From NCBI GenBank assembly GCA_031423795.1, contig JANPGH010000123.1, forward strand, positions 14,206 through 78,205: 64,000 bases of DNA, given 5' to 3'. This stretch comes from Elusimicrobiota bacterium (GTDB taxonomy: Bacteria; Elusimicrobiota; Elusimicrobia; UBA1565; UBA9628). This document shows positions 4,206-20,500 of this stretch, one piece after another. The notes beneath the pieces were generated by a model. The model did not search any database, had not been told where the DNA came from, and saw only the letters and a program-made list of their open reading frames with translations. Within the stretch, counting starts at the first letter, position 1; every line of letters begins with the position of its first letter. The translations under genes and the position numbers were made by a program.

Positions 4206-4263
4206 ACAGGGTCATCGGGACCCCGCAACGTGGGATAAAAGACCCATCCTCGATATAATCGCC
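4206..4263. repeat. 58-bp conserved upstream element, copy 1
   Basis: acagggtcatCgggaccccgcaacgtgggataaaAgacccatcctCgatataatcgcc. It matches 5541..5598 at 55 of 58 positions and contains the dyad GGGTC-N5-GACCC. Confidence 0.85.
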
Positions 4264-4279
4264 CCACGTGCGACGCGGC

Positions 4280-5506
4280 TTAGGGCTTGCCCGGAGGCTT
4301 CGGGGTGTGCGACGAAGCAACTTCCCGCCACACATCCTTCATTCCCGCTAAATCCGCTAAACTAAGTCTAAGAGGGACGAGCGGAATTTTATGGGATGGC
4401 GGCATATTTAAAAGCTCAGGATCGATGAGATAGGCGCTGCCGTCGGTGCCCAACCTGAAGTTGAGATCGTGCGGGGCCAAATGCAATTCGCCTTCGATCA
4501 CGGAATAGGCGTGCCGAATATCTTGCTCCATTCCGTCAGTGAAAGCGAAATCCGGTTTGCGTTCGAAGATTTTTCTCATACGCCGCCATTCCGGAGTGCC
4601 CGGCTGCCTCACTTCGAAAAGATGTATGCCGTCAACATATTCGGAGACGAGTCCCCAATATCCGGAAATCTCCGTAAGACCGTAGAATCGGGGGACTTTC
4701 ACCGACAGGTCACGCAGAGATTTTAACCACGCGGCTTCGTTAAAAATAAGAAAGGTCTGATTCAAGGTCTGCCGCAAGGAAAGTTTGACGAAGACTTTCT
4801 TCCCGTTTATTACTCCGACAATTCTTCTCAGCGTGCCCTTGCCCATTAAGGGATCCCCCGGATTCTTAGGGCCGATCACCTTCATATGTTCGATCTTCGC
4901 GGCCTCGATATGCGGAAAATCATTGGCCGTTCGAAGGAAAATGTTGATGGGATCTTTTCCAATGAGCGCACGCCGCACCGCGAGCACCCTTTCCTGGGCG
5001 CTGGGCACTGGAGAACCGAGCACCGGCGCCGCCCAAGACCTAGTCTCCTTGGCGACTCGCGCTTCGATTGCGGCGCGATGCTCTTCGGACATCCTCTCGC
5101 CGACGAGCGCCCGAGTCTGGTGCAACGGCCTGAGATCGACATTCCCGACGCGCTTAAGCGCCTCTTCGAGAATTCCGAGCCTTGAAAATAGCTGTGCTGC
5201 ATGATCGGGTTGCGCCAATGCTTTCGTCGCGATTTCATTCGCTGAGGCGATCGCCGCATCGTCGGCCATGAAATCCCGGACCACGTCTCCAACGTGGCTA
5301 ATCGGCGAGTTGGGACGAAGGAATTCATAGGCCCGGGGTTGCAACGACACCGGAAGGGCGGCGAACATCGAGCGTAACGAGTGCGCAACCTTCACGGACG
5401 CAACGCCGTTTGACGCGGCATGACCTGGGCGGGACGCGCCGACGCCGAGCAGGAGGGCCAGGCCCCACGCGCAAAATACCGACCGGCTTGTCTTTCCATC
5501 TTCCAT
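4280..5506 (-). CDS. secreted protein-kinase-fold protein, paralog B
   Basis: 408-aa ORF with signal-like N-terminus MEDGKTSRSVFCAWGLALLLGVGAS. Collinear with paralog A over its full length (e.g. DIRHAYSVIEGEL, DLNFRLGTDG, DPE). Confidence 0.65.
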   Translation of the reverse strand: MEDGKTSRSVFCAWGLALLLGVGASRPGHAASNGVASVKVAHSLRSMFAALPVSLQPRAYEFLRPNSPISHVGDVVRDFMADDAAIASANEIATKALAQPDHAAQLFSRLGILEEALKRVGNVDLRPLHQTRALVGERMSEEHRAAIEARVAKETRSWAAPVLGSPVPSAQERVLAVRRALIGKDPINIFLRTANDFPHIEAAKIEHMKVIGPKNPGDPLMGKGTLRRIVGVINGKKVFVKLSLRQTLNQTFLIFNEAAWLKSLRDLSVKVPRFYGLTEISGYWGLVSEYVDGIHLFEVRQPGTPEWRRMRKIFERKPDFAFTDGMEQDIRHAYSVIEGELHLAPHDLNFRLGTDGSAYLIDPELLNMPPSHKIPLVPLRLSLADLAGMKDVWREVASSHTPKPPGKP

Positions 5507-7002: not shown

Positions 7003-7683
7003 ATGAACAACGTTTGGTCACGAATCGAAGCCGTCCTCGAAGAAAAGTCGCTGCTCAAGCACCCCTTTTACCAGGCCTGGAACATGGGCACATTGACGCG
7101 CGAAGACCTCTCCCATTACGCGCAACAGTATTACGCGCAGGAATCCCGGTTTCCGCGATATTTGAGCGCGGTACATTCGAACTGCCCCGACGCCGCGACC
7201 CGCCGCGTGCTACTCGACAACCTCAATCATGAGGAAGCCGGCCCTGACAACCATCCCGAACTGTGGCTGCGCTTTGCCGAAACTGTCGGTGCCGATCGCG
7301 CCTCGGTGCTTTCCGCCGTGCCCCACGCGAAGACGACGGAGTGCGTCGAGTCCTTCGACCGCCTGTCTCGGGGAAGCTGGCAGACCGGTCTGGCCGCTTT
7401 GTATGCCTACGAAGTGCAGCAGCCGACCGTCGCCAAGACCAAGGTCGACGGCCTCGTTTCGAAGTACGGCCTCAATTCGAAAGCGGCCTTGGGCTTCTTC
7501 CAAGTCCACGAGACGCTCGACGCGTGGCATTCGGAGTCCGAAAAGAATATCTTGGACGGTGAAGTGAAGCGCGATCCCGCGTTGGCCGACGAATTGGTTA
7601 AGTCCGTCTCCTCGGCCTGCGACGCGCTAAACGCGTTGCTCGACGGCGTTTGCGAAGCGCGCGGCATCGCCTGCGCCTGCTAA
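7003..7683 (+). CDS. CADD/PqqC/TenA-like haem-oxygenase-fold di-iron protein
   Basis: LLKHPFYQAWNMGTLTREDLSHYAQQYYAQESRFPRYLS and NHPELWLRFAE resemble the CADD (Chlamydia CT610) family. GGAGAG Shine-Dalgarno sequence upstream. Confidence 0.65.
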   Translation: MNNVWSRIEAVLEEKSLLKHPFYQAWNMGTLTREDLSHYAQQYYAQESRFPRYLSAVHSNCPDAATRRVLLDNLNHEEAGPDNHPELWLRFAETVGADRASVLSAVPHAKTTECVESFDRLSRGSWQTGLAALYAYEVQQPTVAKTKVDGLVSKYGLNSKAALGFFQVHETLDAWHSESEKNILDGEVKRDPALADELVKSVSSACDALNALLDGVCEARGIACAC

Positions 7684-7687
7684 ACGC

Positions 7688-8149
7688 TCAGTAAACGCCG
7701 CGCTCCTGGTACCAGGGGATTTTCTTGCTGGACGGTTTCAGGCAATCGATAAAGACGATCACGCGCTCTTGGCCGTACACGTAGCCCCAGCGTCCGGTTC
7801 CCTTTAAGCTTGAGCCGTTGATCACCCCGTCGCTTAGGATGCCCGATCCGTAGTATTGGACCTTGTCCGTTTCTGAGCCGCAGGCGGGCAAATCGACCGC
7901 CGGTATGTTCGCGATGTATTTCGGCACCAAGTCGGTCAGCTTCGCGGGGATTTTTCTCTCCGCCTTGATGTAATCAGCGATAGCACTTTCAATCGATGCC
8001 AAGTTCGTGCGGGCTTTCGTCTCGCGGAAACTCATCTCTTCGTTGCGCGTCGCCCGTTCGAACGTGTCAGAAGTCTCATCGTGCATGAGCGAATTCATGC
8101 ACGCGGACGCCGATAAAATCAACGGAAGCAGAAAAAGTTTCCGTTTCAT
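7688..8149 (-). CDS. lipoprotein with pilin/pseudopilin-like core
   Basis: MKRKLFLLPLILSASAC lipobox. SIESAIADYIKAERKIPAKLTDLVPKYIANIP resembles a pseudopilin helix-loop. The start overlaps the mnmA stop by 4 nt. Confidence 0.5.
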   Translation of the reverse strand: MKRKLFLLPLILSASACMNSLMHDETSDTFERATRNEEMSFRETKARTNLASIESAIADYIKAERKIPAKLTDLVPKYIANIPAVDLPACGSETDKVQYYGSGILSDGVINGSSLKGTGRWGYVYGQERVIVFIDCLKPSSKKIPWYQERGVY

Positions 8150-9210
8150 TGGATTGCTCCTCTCATGATCGTGCCGCCGCCCAAGACGAAGCTGCCGTCG
8201 TAGAACACCGCGGCCTGGCCCGGCGCCGGCGCGCGTTGCGGCGCGTCGAAACGCACGAGAACCGTGCCGTCGGCGTTTAAGGACAGTCCGGCGGACGCCG
8301 GACTGTGTCGATGACGCACCCGCACTTGCGCGCGCACCGAACTAGCGGGCACACCCGCGGTCCAGGTGACGCTGCCGGCGACCAGAGAAGACGCCATCAC
8401 GTCGTTTTCGTCGCCGACGACCAATGTGTTCGTCTCGGGCTTCATACGCACGACATACAGCGGATCAGGCGATGTAACGCCAAGTCCCTTGCGCTGTCCG
8501 ACGGTGTAAGAGGCCAGACCGGAATGTTCGCCGATCACCCTGCCGTCGGTCGATTCAATGGGTCCTGGCATCAAGGTCGCAGCTCCGGCAGACTCGGACC
8601 GCGACGCGACAAAGCCGCGCACATCCCGCTCGGGAACGAAGCAGGTTTCCATGCTTTCCGGCTTGTCGGCGGTGCGCAATCTTAAGGTCCGCGCGCGTGC
8701 GCGCACTTCGTCCTTGGTCAGCGCGCCGACGGGGAACTCCGCCTTCGCCAGCTCTTTGGCCGTCAATGTATAAAGGAAGTAGGTTTGGTCCTTGCGCACA
8801 TCGATGGACGTAGACAGACGTCCATCGATGATTCTTGCATAGTGCCCGGTCGCGACCTTCCCACAGCCCCAGGCCTCGGCTAAATGCAGCAAGTGGCCGA
8901 ACTTCACCGATCGGTTACATTCGACGCACGGATTGGGAGTCGTGCCGTCAAGATAAGCGGCGACGTACGGCTTAATGACTTTCTGCTCGAAGCGTTCGGA
9001 CATGTCGGCCACGTAGTGGGGAATGCCCAGGGCCTCGCAGACACGCTTGGCGTCATCCACGTCCGCCGGAGAGCCGCAGCAGCCGAATCCCGTCGCCGCG
9101 CGCGGCAAGAGCTTCATCGTCACGCCGACGACGTCCTCGCCCCGCTCCTTAAGAATGGCGGCGGCCACCGAACTATCCACACCACCACTCATCGCCGCCA
9201 AAATCCTCAT
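8146..9210 (-). CDS. mnmA: tRNA 2-thiouridine(34) synthase MnmA
   Basis: MRILAAMSGGVDSSVAAAILKERGEDVVGVTMKL PP-loop motif. The start was moved to ATG 9210, which forms an ATGA overlap with the nifS stop (track ORF starts at 9258). Confidence 0.85.
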   Translation of the reverse strand: MRILAAMSGGVDSSVAAAILKERGEDVVGVTMKLLPRAATGFGCCGSPADVDDAKRVCEALGIPHYVADMSERFEQKVIKPYVAAYLDGTTPNPCVECNRSVKFGHLLHLAEAWGCGKVATGHYARIIDGRLSTSIDVRKDQTYFLYTLTAKELAKAEFPVGALTKDEVRARARTLRLRTADKPESMETCFVPERDVRGFVASRSESAGAATLMPGPIESTDGRVIGEHSGLASYTVGQRKGLGVTSPDPLYVVRMKPETNTLVVGDENDVMASSLVAGSVTWTAGVPASSVRAQVRVRHRHSPASAGLSLNADGTVLVRFDAPQRAPAPGQAAVFYDGSFVLGGGTIMRGAIQ

Positions 9211-10361
9211 GCCACGCTCGCCACCGACCGCAGACGACCGATCGCCACCGGCAGGCACTTCAAAAATCGGTCGATATCGGCCTCAGTCGTTCCCCAACCC
9301 ACGGAAATCCTCAAGGATCCGGCGGCAAGCCCGGGGTCAATTCCCATCGCCGTGAGGACGTGCGACGCAAGCGATGCCCCCGAGGAGCAGGCCGGACCGC
9401 TGGACACGCAGAATCCTTCGAGGTCAAGGGCCACGACCAAGTGGTGCCCATCGACCCCGCTGAAGACAAAATTGGAGGTATTCGGCAGGCGCCGCTCCGG
9501 GTGGCCATTGAGGCGCGCATCGCTAATTTTCAGCACGCCGGCTTCCAGGCGTCGCCGAAGAACCAATGCGTGAGCGGCACTCGACTTTAATTCGCGCAAA
9601 GCCAGCTCGCATGCCACGCCGAGGGCGGCGATGCTCGCGACGTTCTCCGTTCCGCCCCGCCTTTCCTTCTCTTGATGGCCGGTCAGGACCGGCGACAGTC
9701 GCACTCCGCGGCGCACGTATAGGGCACCGACCCCTTTCGGTGCGTTGAGCTTGTGCCCAGACAACGAGAGCATGTCGACTCCCAAAGCTTTCACATCGAC
9801 GGCGACCTTGCCTAGGGATTGCACGGCGTCGGTATGCATCAATGCGCCGCGCGCGCGCGCCAAGGCGGCGATCTCGGCGACCGGCTGCAGGACGCCGGTC
9901 TCGTTGTTGGCGTGCATCACGCTGACGACGATCGTGCGCTCATCAATCGACGCGCGAAGCGCGTCGACGGCGACGACGCCATCCGGGCTGCACGGCGCTT
10001 CCCCAATATCGAATCCTCGATGGCGCAATTCGCTCAGCTGACCGCGCACTGCGTCATGCTCGATCCGCGTTGCCAGGACTGTCCCGCGGCCGTTTTTCTC
10101 GGCGCGAGCCTGCCATGCGGCGCCTGAAATCGCGAAGACGTCGGATTCGGTGCCGCCGGAAGTGAAGATGATTTCGGATTGATCGGCAGCCCCGATCAAC
10201 GAGGCGACCGACTCGCGAGCGCGCTCGACGGCCGCCCGCGCCTTTTGTCCCAGCGAGTAGACCGAATTCGGATTGCCGTACCCGTCCCTCAGCCACGGCA
10301 ACATCGCATCGAGGACTTCCGGTCGGATCGGGGTGGTCGCGTTGTGGTCGAGGTAGGTCAT
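9207..10361 (-). CDS. nifS: cysteine desulfurase (NifS/IscS class)
   Basis: MTYLDHNATTPIRPEVLDAM...SGGTESD...SLSGHKLNAPKGVGALYVR (PLP lysine motif)...SSGPACSSG. Confidence 0.85.
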   Translation of the reverse strand: MTYLDHNATTPIRPEVLDAMLPWLRDGYGNPNSVYSLGQKARAAVERARESVASLIGAADQSEIIFTSGGTESDVFAISGAAWQARAEKNGRGTVLATRIEHDAVRGQLSELRHRGFDIGEAPCSPDGVVAVDALRASIDERTIVVSVMHANNETGVLQPVAEIAALARARGALMHTDAVQSLGKVAVDVKALGVDMLSLSGHKLNAPKGVGALYVRRGVRLSPVLTGHQEKERRGGTENVASIAALGVACELALRELKSSAAHALVLRRRLEAGVLKISDARLNGHPERRLPNTSNFVFSGVDGHHLVVALDLEGFCVSSGPACSSGASLASHVLTAMGIDPGLAAGSLRISVGWGTTEADIDRFLKCLPVAIGRLRSVASVA

Positions 10362-11068
10362 TGCCCGAAGCCGAAACCCTTAAAGAGGTCTTCTTCCCCG
10401 CCCGCGGCTTTCCCCGCGGGGGCACCTTCCGCGGCGGGTTTCGGTTCCTCAGCGGCAGGCTTGGTTCCAGGCAGGGTGGCGCCCTTAGGCGCGCCTTTGG
10501 CAGTCACGCCCGATACGATCGTTTTGCGCACGCCTTCGGCGAAAATAATCCGGCCTTTTTTGCGGTCGTAAAACAGGCGGAATTGGCTTTGCTTGGTCTG
10601 CGGTTCGTAAGCCTTACCAAGGTTGTCGCGCTCCTGCTCCCAACCGGGGTTGTAGAGCAAGCGTCCGCGCAAATCGACCTTGTTGCTCAACACCGGAAGG
10701 CTGAAACGGATGCGATAAAATCCGTTGGTATCGGAAACGCCGGGATCGAACGATGAGGTGGCAAATCCGGAGGGCCGGGCCTCGCCTTCCTCCACAACGT
10801 TCTCACCGCTGGCGACCGCGCGCACGACCACACCTTGAATGGGGTTGTCCTTGTAGTCCGTGATCACGCCTTGAATATATCCGTCGAGAAATTGCGTCTT
10901 CTGCGCGACAGAAAACACCAACAACTCGGTGGTTCCGGTCAGCTTTTCGGTGATCGAAAGATCGACGACCCGACCCTCGGCGAAATCCTCGACCACCACA
11001 TTCTTGTTCGAGGGTCCACAGGCGGCGAGCAAAACGAGAAGCCCGACGGTAAAAACACGGCGCAGCAT
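10358..11068 (-). CDS. lipoprotein with carboxypeptidase-regulatory-like beta-sandwich and Pro/Ala/Lys-rich tail
   Basis: MLRRVFTVGLLVLLAAC lipobox. GVVVRAV...TDTNGFYRIRF motif. 19 nt downstream of motB; its stop overlaps the nifS start. Confidence 0.5.
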   Translation of the reverse strand: MLRRVFTVGLLVLLAACGPSNKNVVVEDFAEGRVVDLSITEKLTGTTELLVFSVAQKTQFLDGYIQGVITDYKDNPIQGVVVRAVASGENVVEEGEARPSGFATSSFDPGVSDTNGFYRIRFSLPVLSNKVDLRGRLLYNPGWEQERDNLGKAYEPQTKQSQFRLFYDRKKGRIIFAEGVRKTIVSGVTAKGAPKGATLPGTKPAAEEPKPAAEGAPAGKAAGGEEDLFKGFGFGQ

Positions 11069-11087
11069 GGTTTATTTTACCATTTGA

Positions 11088-11840
11088 CTAGCGTTTCTCG
11101 GCGACAGGCACGGGCGCCTGAGCGTCGGCAGGAGCCGTTGTCGCCGCCGCTTCTGTCGGGGGTGCCGCCGCGGACTTGGCCGCCTTCTCGGCGTTTTCCT
11201 TGGCCAAAGTCGGTTTCGGAATCGATGCGCTTTTCACGAAAAAAACCACGCGCCGATTTTTGGCCCTCCCCTCCGGGGTCGCGTTCGGCACGACGGGCCG
11301 CGCGTCTCCATAACCGACGGCGCCGAGGTGTCCGGCTGGGATCCCGTATTTTTCAATGAGCAGCCGGGCCACGCTGGTCGCACGCGCAGTAGAAAGCTCC
11401 CAGTTCGAGTCGAAATACATGTTGTGGATCGGTTGGTCGTCGGTGTGGCCCTCGACTAAGATCTCGTGATCAGCGCCGAGCCTGCGCAAATTCGGCACGA
11501 GCAACGCGAGCTTGGCGTCCATTTCGGCGGTGGGTTCGGCCGCCCCTGACCCGAAGAACGGGATTCCCCCCTGTTCTTCGATCGAAATCTTGAGACCGTC
11601 CTTGTCGACTGTCACCTCGCCCTTCATTTTGCCCTTGTCCATCATGTCCTTCACGTCGGAAGCAGCCTTCTGGACATTTTTGTTCAAGGCCGCCGATAAC
11701 GCGTAGAGAATGACAAAGAAACAGACGAGCTCCGTCATCAAGTCGGCGTAATTGACCAGCCAGGCGGGCGCCGGGTGCCCGATCTGGCAGACTTTCGGAT
11801 CACTCTCGTCGATGAATCCTCTCGGGGCGCGCAGGGGCAC
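11088..11840 (-). CDS. motB: MotB-type stator protein (OmpA-like peptidoglycan-binding C-terminus)
   Basis: VNYADLMTELVCFFVILYAL (TM helix with the conserved Asp). GHTDDQPI...NWELSTARATSVARLL...NRRVVFFV is an OmpA/MotB domain. Confidence 0.85.
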   Translation of the reverse strand: MPLRAPRGFIDESDPKVCQIGHPAPAWLVNYADLMTELVCFFVILYALSAALNKNVQKAASDVKDMMDKGKMKGEVTVDKDGLKISIEEQGGIPFFGSGAAEPTAEMDAKLALLVPNLRRLGADHEILVEGHTDDQPIHNMYFDSNWELSTARATSVARLLIEKYGIPAGHLGAVGYGDARPVVPNATPEGRAKNRRVVFFVKSASIPKPTLAKENAEKAAKSAAAPPTEAAATTAPADAQAPVPVAEKR

Positions 11841-11849
11841 AATATCTCC

Positions 11850-12638
11850 TTAAGCCGCGGGTGTGGCGGATTTGACGATAATGCGTTCAGACGGGGCGAG
11901 ATAGGCCTTCAAGTTCGCCTCGACGACCGACGGGGTGGCGCCGCTTTGCAGCAGCAAGACACCGCGGATGATAATCTCCTTTACCAGAAGCTCCTCCTCT
12001 GAGCGACGCCGCAGCTTTCCGCCCATCGGCAAGAAAATTAAATAGCCAGATCCCAGGCCGTAGAACGCCGCCGCCAAGGCCAGCGCCATGCGGCGCGGCA
12101 CGGCCGCGACGTCCTCGATCGACGAGAGCATCATGATCATGCCAAGCACAGTGCCAATGATCCCGAACGCCGGCGAATAGGTGCCCATCGCGTTGAGGAT
12201 TTCCTGGCCACCCTTGTGACGCTCGCGAATGAAGCCTATTTCGGTCTCGAGCATGTTGCGGATGAATTCGTGATCCGCGCCATCGACGACCAACTGCACG
12301 CCGCGCCGCAGGAAATCGCTCTTGATTCCCCTGACGTCGTTCTGTAGCGCCAGGAACCCCTCTTTTTTGGCCTTCTGTGAGAGGCTAACGAAGGTCCCGA
12401 CGATGTCAGAAGTGTCCTCGCCGTGGGACATCAGCGTCTTCTTGATCACTTTCCCGACGCCGATGACCTGGCTCAGTGGATAATTGACCAGGGTCGCACA
12501 GACGGTTCCTCCCATGACCATCAGAAGCGCTTCCATGTTCATGAAAGGCTTGAATCCCGAAACACCCTCGCTCATGAAGATTGAGCCGATGCACAGGCCG
12601 AAGAAAATGATGATTCCAGCGATGGTTGCGATGTCCAT
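11850..12638 (-). CDS. motA: MotA/PomA-type stator protein
   Basis: 262 aa with a four-TM pattern. C-terminal AFGIIGTVLGMIMML...ALAAAFYGLGSGYLIFLPMGGKL is typical of the MotA/TolQ/ExbB family. Lies 9 nt upstream of motB. Confidence 0.85.
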   Translation of the reverse strand: MDIATIAGIIIFFGLCIGSIFMSEGVSGFKPFMNMEALLMVMGGTVCATLVNYPLSQVIGVGKVIKKTLMSHGEDTSDIVGTFVSLSQKAKKEGFLALQNDVRGIKSDFLRRGVQLVVDGADHEFIRNMLETEIGFIRERHKGGQEILNAMGTYSPAFGIIGTVLGMIMMLSSIEDVAAVPRRMALALAAAFYGLGSGYLIFLPMGGKLRRRSEEELLVKEIIIRGVLLLQSGATPSVVEANLKAYLAPSERIIVKSATPAA

Positions 12639-12662
12639 GTATGTAAAGCTCCTTAAATTCCC

Positions 12663-12893
12663 TTAACTTGCTTCGCGAATGTAACCAGCGATGGGATTGA
12701 CCGGCTTGCCTGAAGTATTGACGGCGCGCCGGTACTCGACGACTTTGGCGACGACTTCTTCCGATTTTTCGCGGACCAGGACCTTATTGCCGGTCGCCAG
12801 GTGCACGACCGTCTGGGGCCCGGGCTCGAGCGTCTCGATGAGTTCGGCGTTGACGACGACTTCGCCGCCGTTTAGTTTATGAAGGACGATCAC
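12663..12893 (-). CDS. flbD: FlbD-like small flagellar protein
   Basis: MIVLHKLNGGEVVVNAELIETLEPGPQTVVHLATGNKVLVREKSEEVVAKVVEYRR matches the FlbD pattern. The start overlaps the stop of the upstream gene. Confidence 0.75.
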   Translation of the reverse strand: MIVLHKLNGGEVVVNAELIETLEPGPQTVVHLATGNKVLVREKSEEVVAKVVEYRRAVNTSGKPVNPIAGYIREAS

Positions 12894-15301
12894 TGCTCCC
12901 CCTTCCCGAAAAGGCGCTTCGTCCAGGGCGTCTGGCGGGTCTCCTCGATCTTGCCTTCGAGCTGGGCGGCGCGGGTGGCGGCACCCTTCTCGGCCTCGCG
13001 CGCCGCGGCAGCCTCGTCGGTAAGCCGCTTGATCTCCGCGCGCATCGTCTCAAGCTCGCGATTGGACGCGTGCGACGACTCCTCCGTCGCGCGACGCGCT
13101 TCTTGGGCCTTTTTCAATTCACTCTCCGCTCGCTCATGAGCAGTGCGAGCTTCGGCCTCCAAGGCCGACTTCTGCGCGGCGATGTCGGCCTCGAAACGCT
13201 CGCGTTCTGCGCGGATCGACTCCGCTGCGCGCTCACGGTCGGATTGTATCTGTTTTTCGGATTCCGTCCGCGTTTTCTCGAGCACGGCGCGTAGCTGCTC
13301 GATCTGCAATTCCCTTGAGCGCAGGCGTTCAGCCACGGCCTTCTCGAAATCCACCCGCATCGGAGTGAGCTCTTGGTACGCGGCGTCGCGCTCTCCTTGA
13401 GCCCGCTGGGCGTTGACGGATTCCCGTTGCAGTTGAAGGCGCGATTGTTCGACCGCTTCCTGGAGATTTCTCATCGAAACGGATTGCGCAGCACTTAAGC
13501 GTTCGGCCTCCACTTTTTCAGCTTGGAGCTCCGTGATTCGGGCCTCGGCGCGCGTTGCGCGCTCGCGCAAATCGGCCAGCGCAGAACGCGTCGACGCCGC
13601 CTGGGCCCGCTCGGTCTCGAGCGTGCGCTCCGCCTCGATGCGGCGATTTGACTCATATTCGCGAGTGGCGTCGAGCTGTTGGATCTTCTGCGCCGAAGTC
13701 TCATGGCGCAGGCGTTCGCCGGCCAACTCCGCTTCGAGCGCGTGCATCCGCTCATACCAACTCGAGTCCTTGGTCGAAAGTTCCCGCCGCAGGCGCGCGA
13801 TCTCGCCTTCCAGCTCGACTCGCGCGGCGTCGGAATCGGTCCGGCCGGCTTGATGGCGCGCGAGCACTTCCCTCTCGATCTCGGCGCGCAATTTCGTCTC
13901 ATGGAGCCGGATCGAGGCCTCGTTCTCCTGACGCAGCTGATCGGCGATTTTCGACGCACGCTGATTGATCTCGTCTTGCGCGAGAATGCGTAGACGGGCT
14001 TTTTCGGCGTCGACGCTTTGCAGCGCCGAGGATTGAGCTTCCGCGCGGACCTCCTTTTCCCGCTCGACCCACTTGCGCTGCAAGACGACGAACTCCGCCT
14101 TGTAACGTTCCTGGGTCCGCTCCCAATCGCCGGAAGCTTTCTTGAGTTCTATCAGCTGCGAACGCGACGCGGCGGATTGACGTTCCAGCGCGCCGCATAC
14201 AGCCCGCAGGCGCTGAAGCTCGCTTTGGGCGCGCTCTGCTATTGATTTGTGCTGAGCAATATCGGCCTCGTACTCAACTTTTGCGCGGCGCAGTTCGGCG
14301 TCTTTTTCCGCGTCGAAGCGCTGCTTGACCGTCGCAAAATCGCGCTGCAAGCGGTCGACATCGGCCTGCAAACGCTCCTCGCGCTCGCGAGAGCTCGAGC
14401 GCAAACTCGTCAAATCCCGTTCCAGCCTCTCTTGGACCAACGCTCCGCCCTGTCGGGCCAGCGTCAGGTCCGCGCGCAACTGGATTGCCTCCTTTTCGCG
14501 CTCGGCGGCGTTTTGCAGGCGAGCTAACGCCTCGGCCCGGTCGCGGGACAACTCCGAGACGCGTTCATCGAGGATTTTCTTCTCCGAAGACACTTTGGCT
14601 AAATCCGTGTCGGCGCCTTTGAGCTTCTCGGCAAGCGACCGCAGATTGCGGATCTCATCATCCTTTGCCATCGCGATTTTCTGCCAACCCGCTTTTTCTT
14701 CCAGCCACCGACGCTCCATTTCTTGGATGCGCAGCGCGAAATGACCCTCTACTTCCTTCTCCTGCGACTCGCGGGCGCCCATCTGATTTTTGAGCGTCGA
14801 TACCCATGTCTCGCGCTCTTGGGCTAAGCGCGACTCCAATTCCAGCGCCCGCTTTTCCAGTTTAAGCTTTGCTTCCTCAGAATCCTGCTCGCGACGGTCC
14901 CGCCGCAATTTATCTTGTAGTTCTTTGAGGCTGACCTCGACTTTCGCGGCCGTGGTCTGCTCCTCCTGACTCTTGAGCTGGTTGACGAGAAGCTTCTCTC
15001 TCTCGTCCTGCAGCCGCCTTTGCATCTCCTCAAGTTTCTTTTCGTAATCGTTCTTGATCTTATCGACTTTCTCGGCGGCCTCTTTTTCCAGGTCACGCGC
15101 CGGCGCCGGTGCGCCTGAAGGCATTCCGGGCAATCTCATTCCCATCGGGGGAAATGACATGCCGCCTCCCGGCAGCGGAGGCGGAGGCACCATCCCCATT
15201 GCTGGTAAAGGAGGTGGAACGGGCGGCCGACCCGCTGAAGCCGGCAGCGGCGGCGGCACGGGAAGTTTCGGTGGAATCTTGTCGTCAGGCGCCATGGTCA
15301 T
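12890..15301 (-). CDS. 803-aa coiled-coil protein with polyproline N-terminus
   Basis: N-terminus contains PVPPPLP, PVPPPLP and VPPPPLP. The remainder is E/R/K/L/A/Q-rich heptad-like sequence. The AAGGAG Shine-Dalgarno sequence fits the third codon ATG at 15295 better than 15301. Confidence 0.6.
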   Translation of the reverse strand: MTMAPDDKIPPKLPVPPPLPASAGRPPVPPPLPAMGMVPPPPLPGGGMSFPPMGMRLPGMPSGAPAPARDLEKEAAEKVDKIKNDYEKKLEEMQRRLQDEREKLLVNQLKSQEEQTTAAKVEVSLKELQDKLRRDRREQDSEEAKLKLEKRALELESRLAQERETWVSTLKNQMGARESQEKEVEGHFALRIQEMERRWLEEKAGWQKIAMAKDDEIRNLRSLAEKLKGADTDLAKVSSEKKILDERVSELSRDRAEALARLQNAAEREKEAIQLRADLTLARQGGALVQERLERDLTSLRSSSREREERLQADVDRLQRDFATVKQRFDAEKDAELRRAKVEYEADIAQHKSIAERAQSELQRLRAVCGALERQSAASRSQLIELKKASGDWERTQERYKAEFVVLQRKWVEREKEVRAEAQSSALQSVDAEKARLRILAQDEINQRASKIADQLRQENEASIRLHETKLRAEIEREVLARHQAGRTDSDAARVELEGEIARLRRELSTKDSSWYERMHALEAELAGERLRHETSAQKIQQLDATREYESNRRIEAERTLETERAQAASTRSALADLRERATRAEARITELQAEKVEAERLSAAQSVSMRNLQEAVEQSRLQLQRESVNAQRAQGERDAAYQELTPMRVDFEKAVAERLRSRELQIEQLRAVLEKTRTESEKQIQSDRERAAESIRAERERFEADIAAQKSALEAEARTAHERAESELKKAQEARRATEESSHASNRELETMRAEIKRLTDEAAAAREAEKGAATRAAQLEGKIEETRQTPWTKRLFGKGEQ

Positions 15302-15320
15302 CTCTCCTTAATGTTATCGG

Positions 15321-17360
15321 TTAAATCGCTTGGGCCTTCATCCCGTCGACCCATTGACGCAGGCCGGGATCGGGATTTTTGACCAGTACCGCCTCAAATT
15401 CCGCGATCGCCTCGCGCTGTCTCCCCATCTGCACGTAACACGTCCCCAAATACTGCCGCGCTTGCCAGAGTGAAGGATCCTGCGAGAGCGCGTATTCCAA
15501 ATACTGCGCCGCCTGCGGGAACTGCCCGGCGTCATGGCTTTGCACTCCCGCCGAGAAATAGGTTTGCGCCTGCGACGCCTGCGCCGGTGTGGCAAGTGCT
15601 GCGGGTGGAAGTGCTACGGGGGCCGCCGCATGCGCAGCGGCTCCCCCGCCCACCGCGGGACCCGAGCCCGCGCTGAGCAATTGCGCAACGGCCTGCTCGG
15701 CTGCGCGCGTGCGAGGTTCGTACTTGGCTCCCCGGTCGGAAGCCACTTCCTCGGTAAATCCGGAGAATGCGCCTCCACGGCTCTCACGGACGCTCACTTT
15801 TCCTTCCTTTTCCAAAACCTTGACGACGTCCATGATCTTCGAGCGCTCATCCTCGACCTGGCCGGCACTCAATCCCGAGGCGTACTCGATGGATTCCTTG
15901 AGCAAGGACGCCGCACCCGACGACATGTTCGACAGGAACTTGTTCAGGATGTCCGGGGCGGCGCCCTGGAGTGCCTTGGCCATCGATTCGGTCTTGAGTT
16001 CGCGCACGATCACTTGCATGTCGCGATCTGGGAAACCCACCACGTCCTCGAAGCTCATAATAAATTTGCGCACGCGCTGATAAACTTCGGGCTTCTCGTT
16101 CTTAAGATACTCCAGGATATTTGCCCGCGTCATCGTGTCCGCCTCATCGAGCAGTTGTGTCAGGCGCTCCATCCCGCCGACGACGAAATCCACGCTTTCC
16201 TTGATGTCGGCGTCTATCGCCATCAACTGTTCGCGCGTCACTTGGCGAAGTTTCAGGGCCTCGATGGCCACCTTCGCCTGCAGTTCCAGCGGCAACGCGG
16301 TTAGCGTCGCGCGCGCGAGATCCGACTTCATGTAGCTGAGCACGACGGCGATCAGCCACGGCTCGTCACCGCGAACCAGGAACAGGTTCCCGAGTCGCTT
16401 AAAGTTCTCCTCCGTGATGTAGGTGAACGGCTCGAACTTCTTCATGGCGTCCTCCACTTCTTCTTCCTCCGGCGGCGGAGGAGGCGCGTCGTCTGGCTTA
16501 CGGCCCATCATCACATCCAAAGCGGCGGCAGATTCCGACTCCTCGGTGCCGTCTCCCGATCCGTCCTCATCCTCGCCAGTGTCGAGCTTGGACTCGACGT
16601 TAACTTCGGCCGCCGGCTTTTCGCGCAACGCGGCGACATACTGACGGAAGAAGCGGGCGAGCGGTCCGAACAGGAACGAAAGAAAAAGCAGGAGGAGCAG
16701 CGCGTACAAAAGCGGCAGGTACACCGAGGGTTTCTTAAGGTCTTCCTTCCAATCCACCAACGGCGGCTTGTCGAATTGGGTCGGGCGGAAATCGATTTGA
16801 TCGTCGCCGAGCTTCTGGTAGTGGCTCATCGCGTCCTTGATGCGGTCGCGAACGACGTCCCGGGCTTTTTTGTCCTTAAGGACGCCGTCGTCGTGAATCA
16901 CGGTGACTTGGAGCCTTTTAAAGATGGGCTTGACGGAAAACCGCTGTTCGTCGACGCCTTTCATCTGTTGGGCTTGCTGGGCTTGCGATTGCTCGGGCTT
17001 TTCCGGATTTTGCTGGGCGGTGATCGTCTTGGGCTTGGGGATGCCAGGCAAGACGAACGTCGTCTGCATCCCACCGCGCGGCGCAGGCGCCTTCTCCTTG
17101 TATTTTTCGGCCACGCCCATACCGGTGCGCGTGGACTCCTGGCTCTCCGCCTTGACCTCCATTTCCACGTCGACGAACGCGGCGGCCTTGCCCTTGCCGA
17201 GCATGGTATCCAACACATCGTGTTGAATGCGCATTTCCGATTCGGCCTTTACCCGCGTCTGCTCCTGCAGCAGCGCCAAATCGGGCGCGACAACGGCCGC
17301 AAGCGCCGGAGTGAGTACCGGCGCCCCTAAGAGCAGGGCGGCGAGCAAATACATTTGCAT
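15321..17360 (-). CDS. FliF(YscJ)-like periplasmic segment + TM + FliG middle/C-terminal-like domains + TPR, in one polypeptide
   Basis: aa 1-25 signal/TM. aa ~40-200 carry VLDTMLGKGKAAAFVDVEMEV and FKRLQVTVIHDDG...RIKDAMSH...GDDQIDF (FliF ring-motif-like). TM at ~213-235. aa ~310-525 carry GGMERLTQLLDEAD... and FIMSFEDVVGFPDRDMQVIVRELKTESMAKALQGAAPDILNKFLSNMSSGAASLLKESIEY...KVLEKEGKV (FliG_M/FliG_C-like). aa ~600-679 are TPRs. Confidence 0.65.
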   Translation of the reverse strand: MQMYLLAALLLGAPVLTPALAAVVAPDLALLQEQTRVKAESEMRIQHDVLDTMLGKGKAAAFVDVEMEVKAESQESTRTGMGVAEKYKEKAPAPRGGMQTTFVLPGIPKPKTITAQQNPEKPEQSQAQQAQQMKGVDEQRFSVKPIFKRLQVTVIHDDGVLKDKKARDVVRDRIKDAMSHYQKLGDDQIDFRPTQFDKPPLVDWKEDLKKPSVYLPLLYALLLLLFLSFLFGPLARFFRQYVAALREKPAAEVNVESKLDTGEDEDGSGDGTEESESAAALDVMMGRKPDDAPPPPPEEEEVEDAMKKFEPFTYITEENFKRLGNLFLVRGDEPWLIAVVLSYMKSDLARATLTALPLELQAKVAIEALKLRQVTREQLMAIDADIKESVDFVVGGMERLTQLLDEADTMTRANILEYLKNEKPEVYQRVRKFIMSFEDVVGFPDRDMQVIVRELKTESMAKALQGAAPDILNKFLSNMSSGAASLLKESIEYASGLSAGQVEDERSKIMDVVKVLEKEGKVSVRESRGGAFSGFTEEVASDRGAKYEPRTRAAEQAVAQLLSAGSGPAVGGGAAAHAAAPVALPPAALATPAQASQAQTYFSAGVQSHDAGQFPQAAQYLEYALSQDPSLWQARQYLGTCYVQMGRQREAIAEFEAVLVKNPDPGLRQWVDGMKAQAI

Positions 17361-17414
17361 TCCTCTTAAGTGTAAGGGGGTGCTGTTACGAAATCAAGAC
17401 AGAAAGACCCGAAA

Positions 17415-19046
17415 TTAGGGTTTCAAGGATTGGAGAAAGTCCCTGACCGAGCGGTTGTTCGGGTCCAGTTCCAGGACCTTGCGCCAAATCGCGACCGCTT
17501 TGTCTTTCTGGTCCATCAAGAAGAACGACGATCCCATGATCTCGAGCGCGGTCACGTTGTTGGGCTCCAAGTCCAGGACGTCTTGCGCGCGGCGCACCGC
17601 GGAGTCGTAATGGCCCTCGTAGATGGACTGCCGGGCGTCGAAGACCTTTTGGTCGACCCACGTGAACTGCTCGGGGCCCTCCAGCCGGCGCGTTACATCG
17701 GCAACCCCCGCTTCCTTCTCGACCATGTTCAACAGGCCGAGCAATTTCTCGTCGCGCGGGTTCTTGTTGAACGCGTAGCGCAGCGCGTTGACCGAGACCT
17801 TGAGGTCGCGCCCGTCGACGTAGGCGATAGCACCCTTGCGCACGAAGGTTTGCGCTTCCTCTCCGCCGGTGGCTGCCGGGACATAGTTGGTCACCGCAGA
17901 CAGGCGCGCGATCATGGTCTCGACTTGCTTGTTGCCGGGTGCTGCGTCCTGGGCCTGGTTGAACTTCTGTGCGGCCAAGGCGAAGTTTCCTTCCTGGAAA
18001 GCTTCCATTCCCGCTTTTACGAAATTCTTGACTTGCGCCGTCGACCGGTCGGACCGAGATTGGCCGAAGCGGAACGTGATCGAAATGCGCGTGCTGGACC
18101 CCAGGTCATGGATTCCTTGGGCGAGGTCGAGCGTAAAGCTGTTGAAATTGAGTCCGAAGCCGAAATCCGTCTCTTGGATCGACGGCAGCCCCAACAAGCC
18201 GAAGCGGAACGCGAACCAGCGAGAAACCCAATATTCGCCGCCAAAACGCAGCTCGGTCGAGGCGCTGAGCGATTTTTGGATGTCCGCTGAGAGCATCAGG
18301 CGCTCCTTGAACAGGCGCATCGAGTTGCCGAGCTTAATTGTCACCGGGTACTTGTCCTGGGTGTCGCCCTGGGTCTGGGAGAACACATTCTGCATTCCCA
18401 GCCCCACGCGGTAGGACGCTCCCATCGTCTTCATCATCCCTAAGTCCAAGGCCTTGGTGTTGTCGGCGGACCCGCCGACCTTGCGCGTGACCTGTTTGAC
18501 GGTCATGCCGAACAGCGTCGTCTCCGTAATGCCTTTGGCCCAAGACAGCGCCATCGCCTGCTGCTGGTCTTGGAAGCTGCCGTTGGTCTTCACCGAGGTC
18601 ACATCGCCTGATGTCGGGTTGTATACGGCGTCTACCTGCTCGAATCCGCTACCCGTGAACTGAGTCATGCTCAGCGCGAACACCGAGCCGCTCTTAGTTG
18701 GGTGGGCATAGCTGAAATACGTAAGTTTGGTCTGCACGTATAGTGTGGCCTGCATCGTCGTCAACTCTTTGCGCTGGAGCTGGGCCAGGCCGGCCGGGTT
18801 CCAATACGCGGCGGAAGCGTCGTCCGAGATGCCGTAGTAGGCACCGCCCATGGCCATCGCGCGGCCACCGACGCCGAAATTCATGAACTGACCGGTAACA
18901 CCACCGCTCTGGGCCGAGGCGTAAGCGGCGCAAAGGCTCAAAAACAGGCCTATTAGCACGCGCGCGCCACCGACGGCCTTTACTACGGCCGACGCAGGCG
19001 AGACGCGCTTGAGAGCGCGCCCCCTCACGTAGTTATAGGGCATCAC
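17415..19046 (-). CDS. outer-membrane beta-barrel (PorV/UPF0164-like N-terminal motif) with C-terminal TPR domain
   Basis: Signal peptide ...LSLCAAYASAQ. GGRAMAMGGAYYGISDDASAAYWNPAGLAQL motif, then alternating beta-strand pattern ending ...RISITFRF, followed by ~190 aa of TPR-like repeats. The first codon is GTG 19046, followed by ATG 19043. Confidence 0.6.
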   Translation of the reverse strand: MMPYNYVRGRALKRVSPASAVVKAVGGARVLIGLFLSLCAAYASAQSGGVTGQFMNFGVGGRAMAMGGAYYGISDDASAAYWNPAGLAQLQRKELTTMQATLYVQTKLTYFSYAHPTKSGSVFALSMTQFTGSGFEQVDAVYNPTSGDVTSVKTNGSFQDQQQAMALSWAKGITETTLFGMTVKQVTRKVGGSADNTKALDLGMMKTMGASYRVGLGMQNVFSQTQGDTQDKYPVTIKLGNSMRLFKERLMLSADIQKSLSASTELRFGGEYWVSRWFAFRFGLLGLPSIQETDFGFGLNFNSFTLDLAQGIHDLGSSTRISITFRFGQSRSDRSTAQVKNFVKAGMEAFQEGNFALAAQKFNQAQDAAPGNKQVETMIARLSAVTNYVPAATGGEEAQTFVRKGAIAYVDGRDLKVSVNALRYAFNKNPRDEKLLGLLNMVEKEAGVADVTRRLEGPEQFTWVDQKVFDARQSIYEGHYDSAVRRAQDVLDLEPNNVTALEIMGSSFFLMDQKDKAVAIWRKVLELDPNNRSVRDFLQSLKP

Positions 19047-19125
19047 AATTCGGTAGCCTGACGCTCCCGGCGCCCGGGAGTCACGGCTTTGCGCCCCTGG
19101 CTTGCGCCAAGTTTGCCGTTATCGC
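19047..19125 (-). promoter_or_regulatory. candidate c-di-GMP-I (GEMM-I) riboswitch aptamer in the operon leader
   Basis: Minus-strand RNA reads AACGGCAAAC-UUGGC[GCAA]GCCAG-GGGCGCAAAGCC-GUGACUCCCGG[GCG]CCGGGAGCGUCAGGC-UACCGAAUUGUGAUG. By eye this matches the hallmarks recalled from V. cholerae Vc2 (GGGCAAACC, a GNRA-capped hairpin, GGGACGCAAAGCC, a long second hairpin, and the tail ..UUACCG). The tail ends 7 nt before the start codon. No covariance-model scan was run. Confidence 0.55.
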
Positions 19126-19215
19126 CTATCCGTATCTACTGCTCACGCCGCGCCCCAGGATCATCCACCCCCGATCCGAAAGCGGCGTGCAACACGGCTA
19201 GGATGCAACTCTCGT

Positions 19216-19243
19216 ATTGTAACGGGAATATGGCACCTGTCAA
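19216..19243 (-). promoter_or_regulatory. sigma70-like promoter for the 19046..7688 operon
   Basis: The minus strand reads TTGACA (19243-19238), a 16-nt spacer, then TACAAT (19221-19216). Predicted leader is ~160 nt and contains the nested hairpin 19144..19189 (CACGCCGC...GCGGCGUG with inner GGAUC/GAUCC) and the riboswitch-like segment. Confidence 0.55.
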
Positions 19244-19368
19244 GGCCCAGATTCCCTCTGAAACGACGCGTTTTTTTGACTTTTAGGTGGAACGCCCACG
19301 CCCTTTAATTCCGCCGGCCGCCGAATCCGCGGCGATCCCATTTTTTCCATATTTTTATATCGAAACAC

Positions 19369-19397
19369 TTGACGCCACCATGGTCGGGGGCTAAACT
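19369..19397 (+). promoter_or_regulatory. sigma70-like promoter with AT-rich upstream tract; no obvious gene attached
   Basis: TTGACG (19369-74), a 17-nt spacer, then TAAACT (19392-97), preceded by cccattttttccatatttttatat. The next annotated + gene starts 480 nt downstream and has its own promoter. Confidence 0.45.
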
Positions 19398-19840
19398 GCG
19401 ACCGCGACGACTTTATGCTCCGATTTCACCGTACTGATGTTTTCTGCGCCGCGATCGGTGTATGTGTCCAACCAAGCTGTCTTCGACGGCGTAATGAACC
19501 GCTTTCGGCCTAGATTCTGGGGGAGCGTCACCGTTCGTTAGAACTCAACTTAACAACGGCCCAACGTTGGGGGAAAGGTAGCCTCCAATTTTTTAAGGTC
19601 GCTTTTTGGCGACCTTTGATTCGGTTAACAAATTCCATCTCGCTATTTTGTACTTGTTGGTTATACTCGCGTTAGTCCCGGGGGAAGAGCGGATTGTTTT
19701 TGTTTTTAAACTTTATTACCTTTCTCTGTATATGGCCAATGGTTGACTTGGTGTTTTGCAAAGGTCATTCCGGAGCCAATGAGTATGGGCCTGATCCATT
19801 AGCCCCCTCTTAATTCTAGCCTGGACGCAATCTGAGCCCC

Positions 19841-19876: not shown

Positions 19877-20500
19877 ATGCCCGAATCAGAGTCGGATTCT
19901 AAATTAGATAGACAAAAGCTGACTCTTTGGCTGTCGATTGGAGCTGCGATCTCCCTAATTCTGCCACTGCTTATCGCGGCTTATATGCATTGGGGCGGAA
20001 ACGGCGGGCCGGGGGGGCCAGGGATGCGCAATGACGTTTTCGAACATCGCGAAGGCGCCGATCGGCGGATCGTCCCGAACCAAGCCTTGGCCATGCCTGT
20101 AGCGCCGCCGCCGACCAATAAAGTCAACCGCCAAGACCTCGAGAACAGCGGATCTTCTCTCGATTTTATCAAGCCGGCTTCGGAAATCGCCGGTAAAGTC
20201 GCCCCTCCGGCCGCGGTGCCACCAGTCGCCCCGGCTCCCGAAAAGACACCCGTGGCAGCGCCCCCGCCGAAAGCCGTGCATAAACCCGCGCCAAAGAGCA
20301 AAAAGAGTTTCGCAACACCCAAGCTGCAGCCGTCGCGCGGGTTTACGAAGATGGGCGGATCGAAAAATGCGACGCCGACCGCAAATGGTTCCCCGTCGCA
20401 GGGCGGGAGCCAACAGGACTTGCTGAAAAACCTAGTGCCGGAAGCGGCCAACAATCCCCAGCTTCAGCAGTACCTCAACCAACATGGTCAGGGGCAGTAG
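19877..20500 (+). CDS. single-pass membrane protein with Pro/Ala/Lys-rich extracytoplasmic region
   Basis: TM helix LTLWLSIGAAISLILPLLIAAYM followed by a low-complexity P/A/K-rich region. No recognisable family. Confidence 0.45.
   Translation: MPESESDSKLDRQKLTLWLSIGAAISLILPLLIAAYMHWGGNGGPGGPGMRNDVFEHREGADRRIVPNQALAMPVAPPPTNKVNRQDLENSGSSLDFIKPASEIAGKVAPPAAVPPVAPAPEKTPVAAPPPKAVHKPAPKSKKSFATPKLQPSRGFTKMGGSKNATPTANGSPSQGGSQQDLLKNLVPEAANNPQLQQYLNQHGQGQ

Follow-up and report, generated by a model that had tools for sequence, protein, structure and literature searches.

Orphan flagellar-type rotor and stator genes beside a PorV-like barrel suggest a non-flagellar envelope machine in Elusimicrobiota

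The 64,000-nucleotide stretch analysed here (the window) comes from an Elusimicrobiota bacterium (GenBank assembly GCA_031423795.1, contig JANPGH010000123.1, positions 14,206 to 78,205 of the forward strand) and carries, on its minus strand, a cluster of flagellar-type rotor and stator genes together with genes for a putative outer-membrane β-barrel, a coiled-coil-type protein and a lipoprotein. Our analysis suggests that the products of this cluster form a non-flagellar machine that spans the envelope, has a flagellar-type torque generator at its core and acts on the cell surface, a reading to which we assign a probability of about 0.6. The individual parts are homologous to known families; what is new is the combination of a FliF-FliG rotor and MotAB with a PorV-type barrel, giant proteins bearing a conserved C-terminal domain (CTD) and a riboswitch of the cyclic di-GMP (c-di-GMP) class, apparently without a flagellum. 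To our knowledge, neither FliG nor the MS-ring has been described outside the flagellum. The initial annotation of this DNA had proposed that rotor and stator parts were repurposed here, and that proposal is supported by our searches, in which its FliF, FliG and FlbD assignments all held.

The rotor fusion and its stator

Seven tightly packed genes, encoding A, B, C, FlbD, MotA, MotB and G, form the core unit of a string of ten open reading frames (ORFs) that runs on beyond them. They are listed here in the direction of transcription, with the signals upstream.

19216..19243, minus strand: putative sigma-70-like promoter, TTGACA-16-TACAAT (consensus scan, 11 of 12 positions)
19048..19126, minus strand: aptamer of the c-di-GMP-I class (GEMM-I clan, CL00126; Rfam, best model the GGC variant RF03167)
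17415..19046, minus strand: protein A, 543 aa; signal peptide, PorV/PorQ-family β-barrel (residues ~53-327), C-terminal TPR (residues ~330-540)
15321..17360, minus strand: protein B, 679 aa; predicted FliF-FliG fusion (profiles, AlphaFold2 models, Foldseek, hydropathy)
12890..15301, minus strand: protein C, 803 aa; N-terminus rich in proline (36% over residues 1-70), with ~730 residues of helix or coiled-coil type after it
12663..12893, minus strand: FlbD-family protein, 76 aa (PF06289, E 1e-21)
11850..12638, minus strand: MotA-type stator A subunit, 262 aa (MotA_ExbB, E 3e-27, and MotA_N)
11088..11840, minus strand: MotB-type stator B subunit, 250 aa; transmembrane helix, plug, OmpA-like peptidoglycan-binding domain
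10358..11068, minus strand: protein G, lipoprotein of 236 aa; lipobox LLAAC, conserved C-terminal tail ...EEDLFKGFGFGQ

An ORF check recovered all operon genes where they had been annotated, as one uninterrupted minus-strand string, and the spacings across the seven-gene cluster were reproduced exactly. Gaps of 54 nt separate A from B (17415/17360), 19 nt B from C (15321/15301), 24 nt FlbD from MotA (12663/12638), 9 nt MotA from MotB (11850/11840) and 19 nt MotB from G (11088/11068), while overlaps of 4 nt join C to FlbD (12890-12893) and G to the following nifS gene (10358-10361). The G+C content of the window is ~60%, and composition shows no break at the cluster.

Protein B carries the argument for a rotor. 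Its predicted layout is as follows.

Residues 2-31: N-terminal signal or transmembrane segment (hydropathy)
Residues 28-194 (window 16779-17279): FliF RBM3/collar-like periplasmic domain
Residues 210-239 (window 16644-16733): transmembrane helix (hydropathy), followed by an acidic linker
Residues 328-389 (window 16194-16379): FliG_M (Pfam, E 1e-8)
Residues 418-523 (window 15792-16109): FliG_C (Pfam, E 1e-23)
Residues 588-678 (window 15327-15599): cytoplasmic TPR

The FliG half is recognisable from sequence, with residues 310-530 matching Thermotoga maritima FliG_MC (PDB 1lkv) at E 3.5e-30 in a PDB sequence search. The FliF half gives only a weak profile match (YscJ_FliF_C, E 0.007, residues 50-186), and here structural models are informative. 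A full-length AlphaFold2 model (predicted local distance difference test score, pLDDT, 76.5) retrieves FliG structures and many FliF MS-ring entries in Foldseek. When residues 1-250 were modelled alone on a 36-sequence alignment (pLDDT 81.6), the 18 best PDB matches were all FliF, in RBM3/collar, S-ring or MS-ring structures (E 5e-9 to 1e-3, probability 1.00, target-normalised TM-score ~0.5), and PrgK of the type III secretion system ranked only below them. An alignment of 32 full-length representatives, 21-55% identical to B, contains the conserved motifs ILDxILGxGKxxVxVxxEL, LPGxPxPK, IKxxxVTxxxD and RGDxLxxxxxxF, the last followed directly by the transmembrane helix (FLFGPL); we take these motifs to resemble the two halves of FliF RBM3. 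Several homologues of B also hold precomputed PF08345 matches.

Together, the motifs, the FliF matches of the models and the PF08345 assignments on homologues indicate that B is a natural FliF(RBM3/collar)-transmembrane-FliG(MC)-TPR fusion without RBM1/2 and FliG_N. The periplasmic part, of ~170 residues, matches only RBM3/collar structures and neither RBM1 nor RBM2, and profiles, PDB search and model detect FliG_M and FliG_C and no FliG_N. The single FliF-FliG protein of the initial annotation is thus borne out, and the C-terminal TPR is an addition to it.

The same holds for the annotated FlbD, MotA and MotB, each of which is backed by profile searches. The best NCBIfam models for MotA are those of flagellar MotP, PomA and MotA (205-220 bits, all below the equivalog cut-offs), and it aligns over its full length with Clostridium sporogenes MotA (6ysf/8ucs, E 1e-54). 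MotB matches MotB_plug (E 4e-12) and OmpA (E 5e-15) in Pfam and the MotD/MotB models of NCBIfam (124-153 bits), and its translation keeps the channel aspartate within the transmembrane helix (YADLMT). On this evidence the pair is a flagellar-type, ion-driven stator. The order flbD-motA-motB is normal in the flagellar operons of spirochaetes and Firmicutes.

Rotor and stator can also be compared at their presumed interface, numbering FliG residues after an E. coli sequence whose diagnostic positions checked out. The FliM-binding motif EHPQ..R (the EHPQR motif) is not conserved in B, reading DEPW..E in the window and EEPW..E in the family consensus. At the torque-generating positions of FliG_C, K264 is replaced by Q, R281 by G throughout the family, D288 by E and R297 by S, and the D289 position holds S in the window and E in most relatives. 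On the stator side, MotA R90 corresponds to K in the window and to K or R in relatives, and E98 to Q in the window's clade and to E in more distant clades. The canonical charge pairs are R90-D289 and E98-R281 (PMC7564593). Of these, the acidic-FliG/basic-MotA pair alone is kept in kind, and the E98/R281 pair is uncharged on both sides (Q, G). The pattern fits a MotA-FliG interface that is cognate but remodelled. We do not claim covariation of MotA E98 with FliG R281, as the latter is Gly family-wide even where MotA keeps Glu.

Conservation, the barrel and its partners

The closest database proteins to B come from metagenome-assembled genomes (MAGs) of Elusimicrobiota (412 matches), and one of them, P0001, is the same protein with a start two codons later. 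A search with residues 1-540 against 1.84 billion representatives gave 76 proteins at E<1e-30; among the 150 matches listed, many are full-length fusions, at identities down to 23-30%. A genome scan of one genome per GTDB species, using a single search pattern derived from a 12-sequence alignment, which limits its reach, yielded 72 loci, two complete chromosomes among them. With few exceptions the loci carry the label Elusimicrobia, Elusimicrobiota or Endomicrobiia; the other labels are a few that read only 'bacterium' and one Ignavibacteria. Complete or near-complete genomes with the cluster include GCA_965283875.1 (contig CBDIQC010000001.1), OY969767.1 and OZ218778.1. Whether the neighbourhood recurs in related genomes had been raised by the initial annotation, and it does, in about 70 Elusimicrobiota loci with fusion identities down to ~25-30%. 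Pfam-annotated neighbourhoods at 70% and 55% identity have the same gene order as the window. Gene order was scored with phmmer over 68 non-redundant loci, taking as denominators the loci with enough sequence.

A, adjacent upstream of B: 51 of 59 loci
C, downstream of B: 49 of 57 loci
FlbD, downstream of B: 41 of 57 loci
MotA, downstream of B: 40 of 54 loci
MotB, downstream of B: 37 of 51 loci

These counts are underestimates because the flanks end at 10 kb, and in Endomicrobiia-type loci an extra helix-rich protein of ~1600 aa with a C-terminal TPR, encoded between B and C, pushes the stator genes beyond that limit.

Relatives of other kinds were also seen. One locus (L040, 4-6482) has a second, far more divergent set of barrel, FliF-FliG-like, MotA and MotB genes directly upstream of the main cluster, so paralogous systems can coexist in one genome. 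In the MAG that contributes locus L053, another locus (L067, 9129-11918) encodes a soluble 346-aa FliG_M/FliG_C/TPR paralogue between parA and parB, without a FliF part or a transmembrane helix. A further candidate, P0283, was rejected as a family member, being a different FliG-domain protein in a KaiC/RecA-like context. A few kilobases downstream of the cluster in L022 lies a group II intron domain match (18585-18665, RF00029, 51.9 bits).

Protein A had been annotated as an outer-membrane barrel with a TPR tail, and profile searches agree: the NCBIfam model PorV_fam (NF033709) scores 101 bits against a cut-off of 90, TPR_2 and TPR_19 follow above their cut-offs, and weaker matches are to PorQ, PorV2, Toluene_X and UPF0164. 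The PorV, PorQ and PorV2 equivalog models score far below their cut-offs. The TPR tail is predicted to be periplasmic. A similar TPR tail, L.L.P.N..L..WL, closes A (17415-17480), B (15321-15390) and, in L053, the protein of ~1600 aa (~16500-16590); the system's periplasmic TPR module and its cytoplasmic ones may share an origin by duplication. The distant cluster of L077 has three neighbours at 15806-19481: another barrel of the PorV/PorQ family (447 aa, 119 bits), a protein of 461 aa whose tail weakly resembles the CTD, and a protein with a PilZ domain.

In distant and moderately close relatives alike, a very large gene lies immediately upstream of the barrel gene. Its products were called at 16,931, 12,795 and 11,658 aa, and all end in the conserved CTD. 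Proteins of up to ~17,000 aa are among the largest bacterial proteins on record.

L077, 1-8090: giant gene, T/S/N/G/V-rich product, no Pfam match on record
L078, 1-8076: giant gene, T/S/N/G/V-rich product, no Pfam match on record
L079, 1-8076: giant gene, T/S/N/G/V-rich product, no Pfam match on record

In 12 loci such T/S/N/G/V-rich ORFs exceed the locus edge, and all of them terminate just before A. The CTD, of ~105 aa, has the consensus SNYPNPFD.RKGG.EGKT.I.Y.L....V.ITIYDLLGY...WDG.N..G..V.KGGYI.RIK...IRKIGVIH. It matches the T9SS (type IX secretion system) type-A sorting domain, TIGR04183, at 24.1 bits in L077 (cut-off 23) and at 18 bits in L078, and also the CTD region of PorU and FlgD-Ig-like models. 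A hidden Markov model (HMM) of the CTD was positive in 31 of 80 sources. Every locus that has the domain has it directly upstream of A, as the end of a giant ORF or as a CTD-only ORF of 135-190 aa, and of 58 related loci, 28 have it directly upstream of the barrel; L072/L077 contain one extra weak match, downstream and on the opposite strand. PorV-type barrels are described as binding T9SS CTDs, and for that reason we regard the adjacency of CTD and barrel, genomic as it is here, as a meaningful functional link.

In the window's nearest clade, a Pro-rich membrane protein and sucCD stand upstream of A in place of the CTD gene. In the window this is a divergently encoded 207-aa protein with a single transmembrane segment (19877-20500, plus strand), which has a long Pro-rich region in a TonB/TolA-like layout and no Pfam match; it is kept beside the cluster, with sucCD, only in this clade and may be unrelated.

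The remaining core proteins are less readily assigned. Protein C, annotated as an 803-residue coiled coil, bears out that description by composition only, as it matches no Pfam or NCBIfam model. Because it has no transmembrane segment, is rich in E, A, R, L, Q and K and contains two prolines in its last 733 residues, we predict a cytoplasmic coiled-coil-type protein. Protein G has no Pfam, NCBIfam or PDB match. In the Elusimicrobia-type clades its gene comes after that of MotB at most loci, and in an alignment of 14 homologues (mean column identity 56%) its tail, EEDLFKGFGFGQ, is invariant and is a candidate TPR ligand.

Three further co-oriented genes follow G.

9207-10361, minus strand: nifS (strong NifS profile match)
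8146-9258, minus strand: mnmA (strong MnmA profile match)
7688..8149, minus strand: protein J, lipoprotein of 153 aa; lipobox SASAC, membership by synteny only

The initial annotation counted nifS-mnmA among the genes flanking the stator, which the comparison across loci does not uphold. Both are absent between G and J in six loci, where J stands directly after G (L003, L022) or after a gap of 50-160 nt (L011, L013, L016, L020); in other loci J lies behind nifS-mnmA. Since J is found behind G without these genes, it is probably the eighth member of the cluster and the last gene of the operon, and nifS-mnmA are probably inserted, co-oriented passengers outside the machine. J has no informative profile match and no PDB match.

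The leader riboswitch and the rest of the window

Upstream of A, the initial annotation had described a structured leader of ~160 nt. As a whole, the 166-nt leader is not significantly more stable than shuffled sequence (z = -1.25), but it does contain a riboswitch aptamer (19126..19048, minus strand). The window copy scores 58.7 bits with RF03167 (E 5.8e-12), 0.3 bit under the gathering score of 59. At the homologous position, all six of the relatives tested pass the Rfam gathering score, three with the GGC variant RF03167 (L036, 69.2 bits; L002, 63.2; L015, 61.8) and three with the canonical RF01051, whose gathering score is 35 (L078, 61.2 bits; L040, 58; L022, 37.6). An alignment of 27 copies shows compensatory changes in 11 of 17 predicted pairs. 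Our own covariance model, built from this alignment and scanned over both strands of 73 sources (1.27 Mb), found 54 matches in ~46 of them. Every match is on the operon strand, and every one except a weak match in L034 (E 0.006) lies a short way upstream of A or of the small CTD ORF that precedes it. Tandem aptamers precede the small CTD ORF and barrel gene in seven loci (L053, at 7340-7733, and L042, L047, L051, L052, L054 and L058).

The aptamer ends 2 nt before a GTG and 5 nt before an ATG start codon of A, and because it abuts the start codon, control by this riboswitch is probably translational. Like known c-di-GMP-I (GEMM-I) riboswitches, it fits the aptamer model over the full length and has covarying helices, and the 5′ leaders of motility- and adhesion-type operons are reportedly the classic setting of this class. 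It differs from them in that the window copy lies under the curated threshold, that the GGC variant is the best model and that some relatives have tandem copies. We know of no established ligand specificity for the GGC variant.

The annotated TTGACA-16-TACAAT promoter is indeed present (19243..19216, minus strand), ~90 nt upstream of the aptamer, although the match is only suggestive, because the region contains 5 promoter-like sites where 2.9 would be expected. A long GC-rich hairpin (19127-19209, minus strand) without an Rfam match separates the aptamer from the predicted transcription start.

Elsewhere, the window contains POR/sucCD genes, an FHA/PP2C/Ser-Thr-kinase group and metal-efflux and P-type ATPase genes. 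Two adjacent paralogues on the minus strand (2951-4267 and 4280-5506; 438 and 408 aa) are apparently secreted and have no Pfam match. A minus-strand region (30537-42841) is a probable integrated phage-like or integrative element with the following genes.

31636-33381: serine recombinase
34146-35558: terminase large subunit (Terminase_6C)
35712-36278: resolvase-type helix-turn-helix protein
36979-40425: primase/helicase-like ORF, 1148 aa
41957-42841: tyrosine recombinase

It is followed by metal-resistance genes, namely those for a Cu P-type ATPase, MgtC/DUF4010, CzcCBA-like proteins and another P-type ATPase.

Possible workings, alternatives and known systems

In the non-flagellar machine that we propose, B would assemble into a membrane ring, equivalent to a minimal MS-ring with a FliG ring, which stator units (MotA5B2) would turn or load at the expense of a proton or sodium gradient. 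An inner scaffold or track could be formed by B's cytoplasmic TPR together with the giant coiled-coil protein or proteins. On the periplasmic side, the collar loops of B (LPGxPxPK) and the lipoproteins G and J might connect to the TPR of the A barrel, which would hold the CTD of a surface protein. The output would be the movement, loading or anchoring of a surface adhesin, for gliding-type motility, adhesion control or secretion; an adhesin output is likely because the barrel-adjacent gene of the relatives ends in a T9SS-like CTD and PorV-type barrels bind such domains. Expression would be set by the c-di-GMP-I-class riboswitch, which would tie the machine to the motile/sessile decision. Movement and secretion cannot be separated within this proposal.

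Several observations weigh against it. Rotation, assembly of a ring and all contacts between the proteins are computational inferences. The canonical electrostatic interface is only partly kept, with both E98/R281 partners uncharged and K264 and R297 lost. Neither the window nor its nearest clade yields a CTD by tblastn or HMM search, and the cluster encodes no outer-membrane translocon. One clade (L039, L043, L044, L046, L050, L057 and L060) has B-FlbD-MotA-MotB without an adjoining barrel. A distant FliF-FliG fusion without TPR (P0215, with PF08345 on record; L080, 1084-7814) has no MotAB within 10 kb; its neighbours are a TPR protein, a Tricorn/PD40 β-propeller protein and two response-regulator-GAF proteins. 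Finally, the absence of flagellar genes covers the 64-kb window and the annotated flanks of relatives, the rest of this genome not having been searched.

The alternative that survives best is a dedicated secretion or assembly machine, an analogue of the T9SS in which MotAB and the FliF-FliG ring replace PorLM/GldLM and energise the export or attachment of the CTD giants. It would make sense of the above-cut-off PorV/PorQ-family match of A, of the type-A sorting-domain match on the giant tail (24.1 bits, cut-off 23) and of CTD ORFs that always lie directly upstream of the barrel gene. There is also a precedent, since T9SS secretion itself needs a 5:2 motor, according to two reports (PMC8986121, PMC10202324). 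We nevertheless consider this alternative unlikely: neither the cluster nor the annotated flanks show a SprA/Sov-like translocon, a PorK/N ring or a PorU sortase, the window's clade has no adjoining CTD gene, and the large cytoplasmic coiled-coil proteins have no T9SS counterpart.

A Tol-Pal- or Ton-style tether or mechanosensor, pulling on the outer-membrane barrel with neither sustained rotation nor adhesin cargo, would suit the envelope-linker character of TPR proteins and lipoproteins and the clade in which no CTD gene stands beside the barrel, and the MotA/ExbB/TolQ superfamily does include systems with a non-rotary output. It is improbable, however, as MotA scores best against flagellar stators and not TolQ/ExbB, its partner has the MotB plug and OmpA domain, the ring-forming RBM3 and the FliG torque domain are kept across the phylum, and the c-di-GMP riboswitch and the link to CTD giants point to surface behaviour.

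Could the cluster simply belong to an ordinary flagellum whose other genes lie elsewhere in the genome, with B as an unusual MS-ring/C-ring protein? MotA, MotB, FlbD and FliG_MC are all of flagellar type, and flbD-motA-motB is a flagellar operon order. Against this, B is without FliG_N, the EHPQR motif and FliF RBM1/2, of which RBM1/2 contact the export gate, and what constantly accompanies it is a PorV-like barrel together with coiled-coil proteins and CTD proteins. The initial annotation saw no export-gate, rod, hook, FliM/N or filament gene in the window, and we likewise found no other flagellar gene there, by Pfam searches on 20 ORFs and reading of the remaining translations rather than a profile search of every ORF, nor any in those flanks of relatives that have Pfam annotation. 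According to a preprint on magnetotactic Elusimicrobiota, most free-living members have no flagellar structural genes yet possess motAB, flbD and fliG, which places this gene set in genomes without such structural genes; it also reports complete flagellar sets in a few Elusimicrobiota, a point in favour of the flagellar alternative. The presumed genome-wide lack of a flagellar regulon draws here on that statement about most free-living members. With FliG_N, the FliM site and RBM1/2 all missing and the non-flagellar partners constant, we regard an ordinary flagellum as quite improbable.

The weakest alternative, a Zorya-like anti-phage defence system with a MotAB-like stator and a long coiled-coil tail, is suggested by a MotAB-like pair beside a very long coiled-coil protein and by weak ZorB matches on MotB, but is extremely improbable and was rejected by PADLOC (no ZorA match on MotA, no match on C, B, A, G, D (FlbD) or J, no effector, only generic ZorB/MotB similarity), and no nuclease or helicase of ZorC/ZorD type is present, the coiled coil is encoded as a protein of its own and the chromosomal context is conserved across the phylum, not a defence island.

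The same preprint contains the one passing mention of the gene set that we found, calling the role of MotAB unclear and its part in twitching enigmatic; a survey of MotAB stators (mBio 2025) does not mention Elusimicrobia. We found no description of the system in the literature, as the initial annotation had supposed, although the orphan motAB/flbD/fliG set had already been noticed, unexplained, in that preprint.

Beyond the non-flagellar surface machine argued for above, we tentatively raise a more specific possibility: a third kind of rotary-motor-driven surface machine, in which an exapted FliF-RBM3/FliG-MC ring turned by MotAB would drive or load a giant CTD adhesin through a PorV-like barrel under riboswitch control, an independent counterpart, of flagellar descent, to the gliding/T9SS engine of Bacteroidota. 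A bolder and less likely idea is that the cluster preserves a rotor-stator module older than the flagellum, one to which no type III export apparatus ever belonged. If the non-flagellar reading is correct, a torque core of MotAB and FliG on a FliF ring works across a phylum without export apparatus, rod, hook or filament. The rotor-stator pair would then be a transferable module, B would offer structural and biophysical studies a naturally occurring minimal rotor, and the system would bear on the evolution of the flagellar motor, with exaptation in either direction. The links to barrel, giant protein and riboswitch suggest surface motility, adhesion or secretion of an unrecognised kind, and could account for any movement by Elusimicrobiota that are apparently non-flagellated and in part magnetotactic.

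Among known systems, the Agl-Glt machinery of Myxococcus and the ZorAB complex of Zorya are ion-driven motors of the 5:2 type with large coiled-coil and envelope-spanning partners. They differ from the present cluster in being TolQR-like (Agl) or in having ZorA with a fused tail, and neither is known to have a FliG or FliF partner.

The T9SS and gliding machinery of Bacteroidota, with its 5:2 motor GldLM/PorLM, its barrels PorV, PorQ and PorP/SprF and its giant CTD-bearing adhesin SprB, shares an ion-driven inner-membrane motor of the MotA superfamily, a PorV/PorQ-family barrel and, in relatives, a giant protein with a type-A-like CTD encoded beside the barrel. The cluster differs in having MotAB and a FliF-FliG ring instead of GldLM, a TPR tail on the barrel and a c-di-GMP riboswitch. 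Pfam and NCBIfam searches found no PorL/M (GldL/M), PorK/N, SprA/Sov, PorU or GldJ in the cluster genes or annotated flanks, and the T9SS is described as confined to the Fibrobacteres-Chlorobi-Bacteroidetes (FCB) group, outside which Elusimicrobiota fall.

With the flagellar motor (FliF MS-ring, FliG/FliM/FliN C-ring, MotA5B2 and FlbD/SwrD) the cluster has in common MotA, MotB with plug and OmpA domain, FlbD, FliG_MC, RBM3/collar and the flbD-motA-motB order. It differs in that FliF and FliG form one polypeptide without FliG_N, RBM1 or RBM2, that the EHPQR motif is lost, that a cytoplasmic TPR is added, that FliG R281, K264 and R297 are replaced by uncharged residues, and that the partners are a PorV-like barrel, giant coiled coils and CTD proteins. 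A structural parallel to B is a Vibrio FliF-FliG fusion (PDB 8z4d/8z4g), likewise a single chain, of 945 residues in 8z4d and solved as an S-ring. Engineered and spontaneous fusions of this kind can build MS-rings and join full-length FliF to full-length FliG in a flagellated cell, whereas B, a natural protein, keeps only RBM3, the transmembrane helix and FliG_MC and adds a TPR.

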